Shown here: positions 1 to 3,000 of the stretch, in pieces
Numbering within the stretch: the first letter of the stretch is position 1
Layout: each line of letters begins with the position of its first letter
From: Escherichia coli
Lineage (GTDB): Bacteria > Pseudomonadota > Gammaproteobacteria > Enterobacterales > Enterobacteriaceae
Length of the DNA: 64,000 nucleotides
NCBI RefSeq assembly: GCF_016903815.1
Contig: NZ_CP069974.1
Direction: 5' to 3' (one strand)
Made by a program: the position numbers

Positions 1-3000
1 GGTCTTATCCAGAATGCCATCGCTCGGGTTATCCAGATACTGCTCCGTGAAACGCCGCCACTCGCTGTCATTAAACACCACACCATTGAGGTTCTGAAGC
101 TGTTCCCGAACATTGGCCAGCATCGCCGACTGTGATTTTACGGATATAAATTCATAGCCCTGATTCCGCAGGTCCTGAATCAGTTCTCGTTCCAGGTCCG
201 ATTCGCTCTGGTAGCTGTCGCCTGTTGGCTCAGCTTTGATGTACTTATCAAGGACGATAAAGTTATTGGATTCAGCAATGGTGTGTGTCTGATGAGTCAT
301 AGCGCATCCTTTGTGCCGTCTGGCAAGGGCCGGAAGGGAGTTAAGGGTGACTTCCGGCACGTAAAAAATAGTCTATATACAGACCGGATGTTAAGGTGGC
401 CCGGTCGGTAGCAACGGTCAATTAATTACTGACAGTTTCAGGTTTTGGGAAACTGAACAGTAAATCACGGTAGTATTCGTATTGTTTCTGGCGCAACTCG
501 ATTTCACGCGGAAGACCTTCGGTGATGGAGTTAGTCAGTGTGTCGAATTTGTCGAGTATTTCGACAATGCGAGCTTGTTCCTTAAGTGATTTTTCGTGAT
601 CTTTAGGATATGGAACCGGAATCATAATTTTTGAAAAACCATTAATGAGTAGTGTATTAACTTTTGTTCTGGCTACATACTTTGCTTTTTCAGAAATAAA
701 CGAATCGGTTTGCATGTAATAGGAAATAAATTTTGGATTCAAAGAATGTCGAAAAGCATAACAGTGATCATGAATAGCGATATCGTCATCCCCAAGCCAT
801 GCCACTGCTTTACCAACGTCTTCTACAGTCTCCCCCACGTCAGTTATCACGACATCTCCATGTTTGGCATAGCGTAATGACGCTGCCATATCAGCTCTAA
901 CCTGTGATAACGAATGAGTTGTGTAAACACCATATCGTGTATATATCTCACCATAATGGATTACACTGATACCACCATCTTCTACATAATCTGCTTTAGT
1001 AAAACGTTTTCCACGAATAAACTCACCAATTTCCCCCAAAGCTTTCCACTCAACCTCACCTTCTTTAAAAGTCAGCAATTGGTCGCGATAGTAGTTGTAC
1101 TGTTTTTTACGCATGTTAAGCTCAGCGGTAAGCTCAGCGGTAAGTGCAGTAAACTTATCCAGAATCCGAACGATTTCAGACTGGATGGCAAGGGACTTTT
1201 CCGGATTATCCGGGCAGGGGATGGGGATCTTAATATTTTTGACAATCTGCGCATTTATGTTTGTCTGGGACCCTGTTCCAAGGGATTTGATATATGTGTA
1301 TTGGCTACACAAGAAGTGAAATACATATCTATAATGAGCAACTTCTTCATTAAGTTGAATATTTGCGCACGCTTGATTTGTTGTCATTGGAATTTTGTTT
1401 ATGCCGATTTTCCCCACAGTTGCCCCATACATAGCAACAATGACACAATTCTTTGGTATCCATTTTGCACTAGAGTTTTTAACTCCAGACTCAGTTATTT
1501 TTACCTCGGTATCCCATATATCACAAAAGTTTACTTCTTGAGTTCTCAACCAAGGAATGTCGCCATCATAAAATTCTGATACGCCAGTTTTAGGGGTTCC
1601 TCCAGATGATATCTTTATAGAAATATCCTCAAGGGTTTTCCACTCAACCTCAACCCCATCCAGCAATTTTTCCAGATAACTCAACTCGCTCATTTCTGCA
1701 CCTCGCAGCCTTCAATTTCAGCCACAATCGCATCAATATCTTTACGCAACTGGTCGATTTTGCTGACCGTAGTTTTAAGCTCTGCATTTAGCTCAGCAAT
1801 ATTGATAATTTCGCGGTTATCTTTCGCTTCTACATAGCAGCTCACCGACAGGTTATAGTCATTAGCGACAACGGTCTCAAACGCGACAGATTTCGCCAGA
1901 TGAGCAACATCTTCCTTGCTGGCAAATACCTGCATAATCTGTTCGATATGGGCATCGGTCAGGATATTGTTGTTGGTCTCTTTTTTGAATAGTTCGCTGG
2001 CATCAATAAACTGAACTTTGGTATCCGTTTTATGTTTAGACAACACCAGAATATTGACGGCAATGGTGGTGCCAAAGAACAGGTTCGGTGCGAGTGAAAT
2101 CACGGTTTCGACATAGTTATTGTCAACCAGATACTGACGGATTTTCTGCTCCGCGCCGCCACGGTAAAAAATGCCCGGGAAGCAGACAATCGCAGCACGA
2201 CCTTTGGCAGAAAGATAGTTCAGCGCATGTAATACAAACGCAAAGTCAGCTTTGGATTTGGGGGCCAGAACGCCAGCCGGGGCAAAACGTTCATCGTTAA
2301 TCAGCGTCGGGTCATCGCTGCCAATCCATTTCACCGAATACGGCGGGTTAGAAACGATGGCATCAAACGGTTTTTCATCTCTGAAGTGCGGTTCAGTCAG
2401 CGTATTGCCCAGCTTGATATCAAACTTGTCGTAGTTGATGTTGTGCAAAAACATGTTCATACGCGCCAGGTTATAGGTCGTATGGTTGATTTCCTGACCA
2501 AAAAAACCTTCTTCGATGATATGGTTATCAAACTGTTTTTTCGCCTGCAACAACAGTGAGCCGGAACCCGCTGCCGGGTCGTAGATTTTGTTAACGCTGG
2601 TCTGCCCGTGCATAGCCAGTTGTGCAATCAGCCTGGAGACGTGCTGCGGTGTAAAGAACTCACCGCCTGACTTACCGGCATTTGCCGCATAGTTAGAAAT
2701 CAGGAACTCATAGGCATCACCGAACAGGTCAATCTGATGTTCGTTGAAGTCACCAAGTTTTAACCCTTCAACCCCTTTCAGAACCGCAGCCAGGCGGGCA
2801 TTTTTATCTTTAACGGTGTTACCCAGGCGGTTACTGGTGGTATCGAAATCAGCAAACAAACCTTTGATGTCAGCTTCTGAAGGATAACCGTAAGCAGAAC
2901 TTTCGATAGCAACGAAGATGCTGTTTAAATCTGCATTCAATCTGTCATTGGTATTTGCTTTCGCAGCTACGTTGCAGAAAAGCTGGCTTGGGTAGATGAA

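Follow-up and report, generated by a model that had tools for sequence, protein, structure and literature searches.

Does a short tandem repeat inside a plasmid-borne hsdS gene set the DNA target of its restriction-modification system, and does it switch that target in nature? The question is raised by a 64,000-nucleotide stretch of Escherichia coli DNA (contig NZ_CP069974.1; hereafter the window), part of an IncFIA/FIB/FII multidrug-resistance plasmid, in which the minus strand carries the hsdS gene of a type I system with a 12-bp unit encoding Thr-Ala-Glu-Leu (TAEL). The mechanism by which TAEL copy number sets the spacer of the target has been known since 1989. We consider it highly probable that this repeat serves as the TAEL ruler in a type IC HsdS, here in its two-copy form, with a predicted target of CCAG N5 RTTG and units that slip or cross over in frame. 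One, two and three copies of the unit occur naturally on otherwise identical backgrounds.

A TAEL repeat in the central helix of HsdS

The unit AAGCTCAGCGGT is present as two exact tandem copies on the plus strand (1118-1129 and 1130-1141), and Tandem Repeats Finder returned a sole array at 1117-1144 (period 12, 2.3 copies, 100% matches, score 56). None of 100 shuffles of the 64-kb window attained its 16 matches in a row at lag 12. On the minus strand the array reads ACC GCT GAG CTT twice, encoding TAEL-TAEL at HsdS residues 185-192, with Thr-Ala-Leu before it and Asn after it. The initial annotation had described a 12-bp unit repeated in tandem at 1118-1141 of the minus-strand hsdS, and both this placement and the peptide that it quoted, TALTAELTAELN, are exact. 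The 'degenerate third unit' that it added holds in part: a nine-nucleotide stretch encoding Thr-Ala-Leu does adjoin the array, but without a Glu codon it falls short of a full unit that could take part in slippage. At the DNA level the repeat unit is the same as that of EcoR124, as judged against published primers (PMC10644984). The hsdS gene and its parts, all on the minus strand, are as follows.

422-1693, minus strand: hsdS, 423 residues, assigned as a type IC specificity subunit (WP_023142242.1 in identical plasmids) from an open reading frame (ORF) with two Methylase_S stretches (PF01420)
1238-1636, minus strand: N-terminal target recognition domain (TRD), about residues 20-152, unlike TRD1 of EcoR124I and matching TRD1 of 1yf2
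1016-1237, minus strand: central conserved region, residues 153-226, holding the TAEL repeat and gap-free against EcoR124I HsdS (7bst_A, 140-213)
1118-1141, minus strand: TAEL repeat, two exact 12-bp units (ACCGCTGAGCTT on the coding strand), the copy-number-variable spacer ruler
1142-1150, minus strand: partial unit ACT GCA CTT (AAGTGCAGT), 9 nt, Thr-Ala-Leu at residues 182-184, outside the exact periodic tract
587-1015, minus strand: C-terminal TRD, about residues 227-369, from the alignment to EcoR124I HsdS
425-586, minus strand: C-terminal conserved region, residues 370-423, without a repeat, 51 of 54 residues identical to EcoR124I HsdS 351-404

The alignment with EcoR124I HsdS falls into four blocks, in which the N-terminal 18 residues, the centre and the last 54 residues are near-identical while both TRDs are divergent, so the half-sites should differ from the GAA and RTCG of EcoR124I; the initial annotation had not noted this divergence. 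Residues 153-226 align with EcoR124I residues 140-213 without gaps, FTALTAELTAELNMRKKQYNYYRDQLL included, and the repeat occupies the same position in the two proteins. The overall layout is that of type IC subunits, with a short N-terminal conserved stretch, TRD1, a central helix, TRD2 and a C-terminal conserved helix; the two conserved helices pair in a coiled coil (PMC3874165). This comparison, which had been proposed as the check on the repeat, thus places it inside the central, spacer-determining helix rather than elsewhere in the protein.

Natural variation in copy number

Copy number was surveyed with allele-specific synthetic queries composed of the TRD2 flank, one, two, three or four units, and the TRD1 flank. 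The allele is carried by 278 PLSDB plasmids over at least 80% of the query. At a match of at least 99%, about 137 plasmids fit the two-copy query and 147 the three-copy query (about 141-147 three-copy plasmids in all), the boundary between the two forms (near rank 135) having been taken from an evenly spaced sample of the PLSDB ranking. The one-copy query had no full-length match among complete PLSDB plasmids. Two-copy carriers include AR_0081 (NZ_CP027537.1), AR_0104 (NZ_CP020117.1) and the host of pMB9272_2 (NZ_CP103523.1). Among 5426 complete E. coli genomes, 321 (~6%) carry the allele, with ~55% three-copy and ~43% two-copy in the ranking; the one-copy form was found in a single genome of this set (strain 98210, CP173527.1) and the four-copy form in none. 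A 419-residue protein that equals the window protein minus one TAEL is encoded on at least 24 contigs in the protein collection. Outside the repeat, no residue distinguishes the one-, two- and three-copy proteins, and the forms have RefSeq entries of their own (WP_023142242.1 for two copies, WP_001617890.1 for three).

Variation of this kind extends beyond the allele, since four other hsdS alleles among the homologues include pairs that differ by a clean four-residue indel, one copy versus two. The three-copy form was absent from the 120 representative homologues, a list that gives no family-wide copy frequencies because clustering at 90% merges copy variants.

Recurrent copy-number change on SNP haplotypes

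To place these variants on backgrounds, 19 IncF loci (designated by L numbers) were compared over 7.1 kb covering hsdR, hsdS, hsdM, phd, doc and pdcA. Only 8 sites vary, and these define three haplotypes, A, B and B'. Haplotype B differs from A at four sites, located in hsdR, hsdM and doc, and the single-nucleotide polymorphisms (SNPs) that separate the two lie ~1.4-1.5 kb either side of the repeat. Haplotype B' is B with one further change, close to the repeat.

1088: synonymous SNP, A in the window and G in haplotype B', 29 bp from the repeat

Each of the three haplotypes is found with all three copy numbers.

Haplotype A: one copy in L017, L018 and L020; two copies in L001, L006, L007 and L008; three copies in L003, L010 and L011
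Haplotype B: one copy in L016; two copies in the window, L004 and L005; three copies in L002
Haplotype B': one copy in L019; two copies in L009; three copies in L014 and L015

Over 5 kb the sole difference between the window and the three-copy plasmid pEcIMT16316 is a 12-nt indel; three substitutions separate the window from a two-copy plasmid of haplotype A. Were copy number to mutate in place, the full set of three states on all three backgrounds would need a minimum of six changes. With short conversion tracts between A and B allowed for, the data still imply at least four to six independent copy changes, because the B' SNP lies only 29 bp away and its three copy states are then explained more simply by two or more additional de novo changes. 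Compared with about nine substitution events in 7100 bp, copy change is thousands of times faster per site. The label of specificity-switch hotspot, given to the repeat from the window alone, is therefore borne out by one, two and three copies of a single allele on identical backgrounds.

It is unlikely, in our judgement, that the copy variants instead have one or two origins and owe their spread between plasmids to homologous recombination or gene conversion, with no recurrent hotspot. The region does recombine, as the mosaic locus L013 shows, and with the A/B SNPs so far from the repeat a short tract could have carried the repeat alone. Yet B' occurs with one, two and three copies, and tracts would have had to end within 29 bp at least twice to produce this pattern; the copy changes also come without foreign SNPs, and the same clean indel recurs in the four other alleles.

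The target predicted for the two-copy form

The three-copy sibling of the window protein has a published motif. The HsdS proteins of the AR_0067 plasmid CP032258 (L022) and of pU13A_A (L003) differ from the window protein only by one extra TAEL. In a single-molecule real-time (SMRT) sequencing study of E. coli sequence type (ST) 101, the F-plasmid system RM.EcoST101IX was given the motif CC(m6A)G N6 RTTG on the strength of its identity with RM.Eco067II from AR_0067, CP032258 (bioRxiv 10.1101/2020.06.07.138552). Strains U12A, U13A and U14A are methylated at CCAG N6 RTTG, and the methylation is gone once the IncF plasmid pU12A-A is lost (Forde et al. 2019, PMC6692316). This motif is in frame with the targets of the type IC enzymes EcoprrI (CCA N7 RTGC) and EcoDXXI (TCA N7 RTTC), which have three units each (PMC3874165) where the window has two; sharing the three-repeat frame, the three-copy form therefore obeys the family rule.

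From that rule and the sibling motif, the two-copy gene of the window is predicted to recognize CCAG N5 RTTG, and the one-copy form would by the same reasoning recognize CCAG N4 RTTG. The N-terminal TRD probably reads the CCAG half-site, given the convention that this domain contacts the 5' half-site (PMC3874165, Table 2) together with the sibling motif, which would leave RTTG (CAAY) to the C-terminal TRD. The methylome of the ST131 strain EC958 (PMC4659465) was considered as a source of evidence and set aside as uninformative, as pEC958 is without this system.

The window itself contains 15 sites for CCAG N5 RTTG, 11 for the N6 and 7 for the N4 spacing, compared with ~3.9 expected from base composition (examples of CCAG Nx RTTG on the plus strand lie at 3141, 3531, 4925, 5583, 21168, 31349 and 55661). 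No target avoidance was thus seen in the window, although these raw, uncorrected counts are inflated for every spacer, probably through oligonucleotide bias and insertion sequence (IS) copies. A copy change would therefore leave the plasmid with many unmodified sites of its own.

The hsd operon

The genes around hsdS, again on the minus strand, are the following.

1690-3252, minus strand: hsdM, 520 residues, N6-adenine methyltransferase, 515 of 520 residues identical to EcoR124 HsdM (PDB 7bst_D)
301-421, minus strand: hsdS-hsdR intergenic region, 121 nt, with one promoter-like site (394 to 365) by consensus match
1-300, minus strand: first 100 codons of hsdR with an HSDR_N match, the remainder lying past the left window edge

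Reading along the minus strand, hsdM (3252-1690) is followed by hsdS (1693-422), whose start overlaps the hsdM stop by 4 nt (ATGA), then by the 121-nt gap and by hsdR from 300, which is the type IC order. Positions 1-28078 of the window are 100% identical to pMB9272_2, a plasmid from a blood isolate in which hsdM, hsdS and hsdR (1038 residues) are all intact; HsdR of the identical plasmids aligns end to end with EcoR124I HsdR (2w00_A, 2275 bits) and has a Pfam EcoR124_C match. EcoR124-type HsdM and HsdR, a new TRD pair and a repeat at the classical position together support the assignment of the gene as a type IC, EcoR124-family hsdS. The promoter scan of the hsdS-hsdR gap gave one consensus match, in a region not enriched over shuffles, and this candidate site is in line with type IC systems having a separate promoter for hsdR.

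That the repeat is a mere family signature in a system inactive here, for example through a defective hsdR or lack of expression, is less probable again than spread by conversion. The window holds only 100 codons of hsdR, some related plasmids have IS1 inside hsdS, and of the five one-copy loci two are missing hsdM (L017 and L020) and a third the 3' part of hsdR (L018), in contrast to L016 and L019. Against this stand the intact hsdM and hsdS of the window, the three intact genes of pMB9272_2 and the in vivo methylation of the host genome by the three-copy sibling, so the window system is presumably active in its host. A sequencing or assembly artefact behind the difference between two and three copies can be dismissed as hardly credible: poor assemblies can collapse tandem repeats and some one-copy loci come from drafts, but the tract of 24-36 bp is far below any read length, each of the two- and three-copy forms is supported by more than 100 independent complete plasmids, and there are separate RefSeq proteins and a one-copy form in the complete genome CP173527.1.

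A model for specificity switching

Under the TAEL-ruler model, each 12-bp unit would lengthen the central helix between the TRDs by four residues, roughly one turn, and every additional TAEL would widen the non-specific spacer between the two half-sites by 1 bp. Exact tandem units could gain or lose one in-frame unit by slipped-strand mispairing or unequal crossing-over, and the outcome would be a new specificity encoded by a gene that is still active.

Perfect periodicity extends over 28 bp in the three-copy tract, 16 bp in the two-copy tract and 4 bp in the one-copy tract. Tracts of 16 and 28 bp are short for RecA-dependent exchange, and replication slippage therefore appears no less likely than unequal crossing-over, the route favoured historically. 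With only 4 bp of periodicity left, a one-copy gene should rarely re-expand. The operon was intact in 15 of 15 sampled two- and three-copy loci, and the losses among one-copy loci described above may hint, in what is a small sample, that the one-copy form is tolerated mainly where the system is disabled; two of these loci, L017 and L020, share one deletion breakpoint, which IS1 adjoins in L020. The rarity of the one-copy form may reflect counter-selection.

In its strongest form, to which we give even chances, the model holds that the TAEL tract is a true contingency locus with three natural states (predicted targets CCAG N4, N5 and N6 RTTG) that interconvert orders of magnitude faster than point mutation or are under diversifying selection, carried on epidemic IncF multidrug-resistance plasmids and on a P1-like phage-plasmid, with the one-copy form as a near-irreversible end state.

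Several points weigh against reading the repeat as a switching ruler. The loci used for the haplotypes were picked by copy number and not randomly. L013 (NZ_CP054237.1) has mosaic SNPs over L001 coordinates 5873-11405, being B-type at 6626, A-type at 7251 and again B-type at 10212 and 11405, with a private change in addition, a pattern that points to recombination inside the operon or else to an intermediate haplotype there. In the literature searched, CCAGN5RTTG and its variants appear in no paper, and no methylome of a two-copy carrier was found there. How a single helix of the coiled coil accommodates a change of one turn is acknowledged to be unclear (PMC3874165). Finally, hsdR is cut by the window edge, with only 100 codons inside, and restriction here is a prediction.

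Comparison with known rulers

The closest precedent for the ruler is the type IC prototype itself, EcoR124I and EcoR124II of plasmids R124 and R124/3, in which two 12-bp units specify GAA N6 RTCG and three specify GAA N7 RTCG (PMC3874165), in agreement with what had been stated for the window gene at the outset, namely that it encodes an EcoR124-type HsdS whose TAEL copy number sets the spacer. Gene order is the same, HsdM is 99% identical and HsdR near-identical, and HsdS differs from that of the window at ~3 of 74 residues in the central region and 3 of 54 in the C-terminal region. The same 12-bp unit is found in the same position, the two copies of the window corresponding to the EcoR124I state; in contrast, both TRDs are unlike those of the window, and the window allele also has natural one-copy forms. 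Hybrids of EcoR124I and EcoDXXI with two or three units (EcoDR2/DR3 and EcoRD2/RD3) recognize TCA N6/N7 RTCG and GAA N6/N7 RTTC as predicted (PMC3874165), and the ruler is therefore independent of the TRDs. Copy change in these systems was ascribed to unequal crossing-over (PMC3874165), and the ruler has been re-engineered by deleting one unit from EcoR124II with primers (PMC10644984).

The type I system known as RM.Eco067II, RM.EcoST101IX or that of pU12A-A has an HsdS residue-identical to the window protein outside the repeat and the same IncF context, with IS1 and phd-doc alongside; it differs in having three TAEL units instead of two, the predicted target of the window being one base shorter. 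The ORF survey found no prrC-like anticodon nuclease gene embedded in the window operon, unlike the EcoprrI comparison.

Population-level variation and an active one-copy form have a precedent in the type IC system NgoAV of Neisseria gonorrhoeae, where strains carry zero to three LEAT repeats in the centre of HsdS and PacBio sequencing linked one LEAT to GAC N6 TGC and two to GAC N7 TGC (PMC6789123). NgoAV differs in repeat sequence and host, in its chromosomal locus and in a frameshifting poly-G tract, which is absent from the window hsdS. Simple sequence repeat phase-variable hsdS genes (Atack et al. 2019, PMC7383803) likewise have a repeat within hsdS that varies in length by slippage, but there the frame shifts and expression is turned ON or OFF, whereas the 12-bp unit of the window keeps the frame and would change specificity. 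ON/OFF phase variation by frameshift was accordingly rejected for the window gene, the variants of 419, 423 and 427 residues all being full-length and in frame. An hsdS inverton or shufflon was rejected as well: the operon has a single hsdS, and the annotated neighbours in relatives are phd-doc and IS1. No second hsdS ORF was found in window 1-12000, a survey that included no inverted-repeat search.

Genomic context

The hsd block adjoins a P1-type phd-doc module (phd at 3423-3650, doc at 3650-4030), followed by pdcA/pdcB-like ORFs to 4601. By identity to L021 (offset -6000), window 1-28078 further includes a RepFIA-type rep gene (5734-6711), IS1, tetR(B)/tet(B), IS26, dfrA17-aadA5-qacEdelta1-sul1, blaTEM-1 and blaCTX-M-15, the resistance stretch covering 10783-28078. 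The same hsd block, 97.6% identical and with three TAEL units, lies on the IncY plasmid pE6474.2 (L012:2285-12463) beside genes for a late promoter-activating protein and terminase. This plasmid appears to be a P1-like phage-plasmid, and the hsd module appears to be common to P1-type phage-plasmids and IncF plasmids.

In NZ_MK295819.1, NZ_LC520287.1 and NZ_OP156879.1, an otherwise identical hsdS is split in two pieces by an IS1 family transposase. Past the left edge of the window, beyond hsdR and IS1, L001:1784-3715 encodes a nucleotidyltransferase (weak SMODS match) and then an S-4TM putative pore-forming effector; the pair looks like a two-gene defence pair resembling a cyclic oligonucleotide-based antiphage signalling system (CBASS), which would put the hsd operon in a small defence island. 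A short ORF annotated 'type I deoxyribonuclease HsdR' (~105 residues, weak HSDR_N) lies by IS5, downstream of pdcB, in L007 (9989-10306), L010 (10001-10336), L011 and L013, and is probably what is left of another hsdR gene. No such ORF was seen in the window, which has an IS fragment after pdcB.

Implications

The mechanism is textbook knowledge and the understanding of type I enzymes is unchanged; with the three-copy motif already published, what is new is the predicted target of the two-copy form and the clear natural switching among one, two and three copies. The allele resides mostly on IncF resistance plasmids, which split near-evenly between two specificities that annotation pipelines label identically. 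The distinction matters for the interpretation of methylomes (CCAG N5 versus N6 RTTG) and for anticipating how restriction may impede plasmid transfer and phage therapy among strains that are clonal in other respects. With three states on three backgrounds marked by 8 SNPs, the locus is also a natural data set for the turnover rate of a specificity-switching repeat. If the TAEL tract is indeed a contingency locus, resistance plasmids alike in all other respects would give their hosts different methylomes and would hinder one another, and phages, by restriction.

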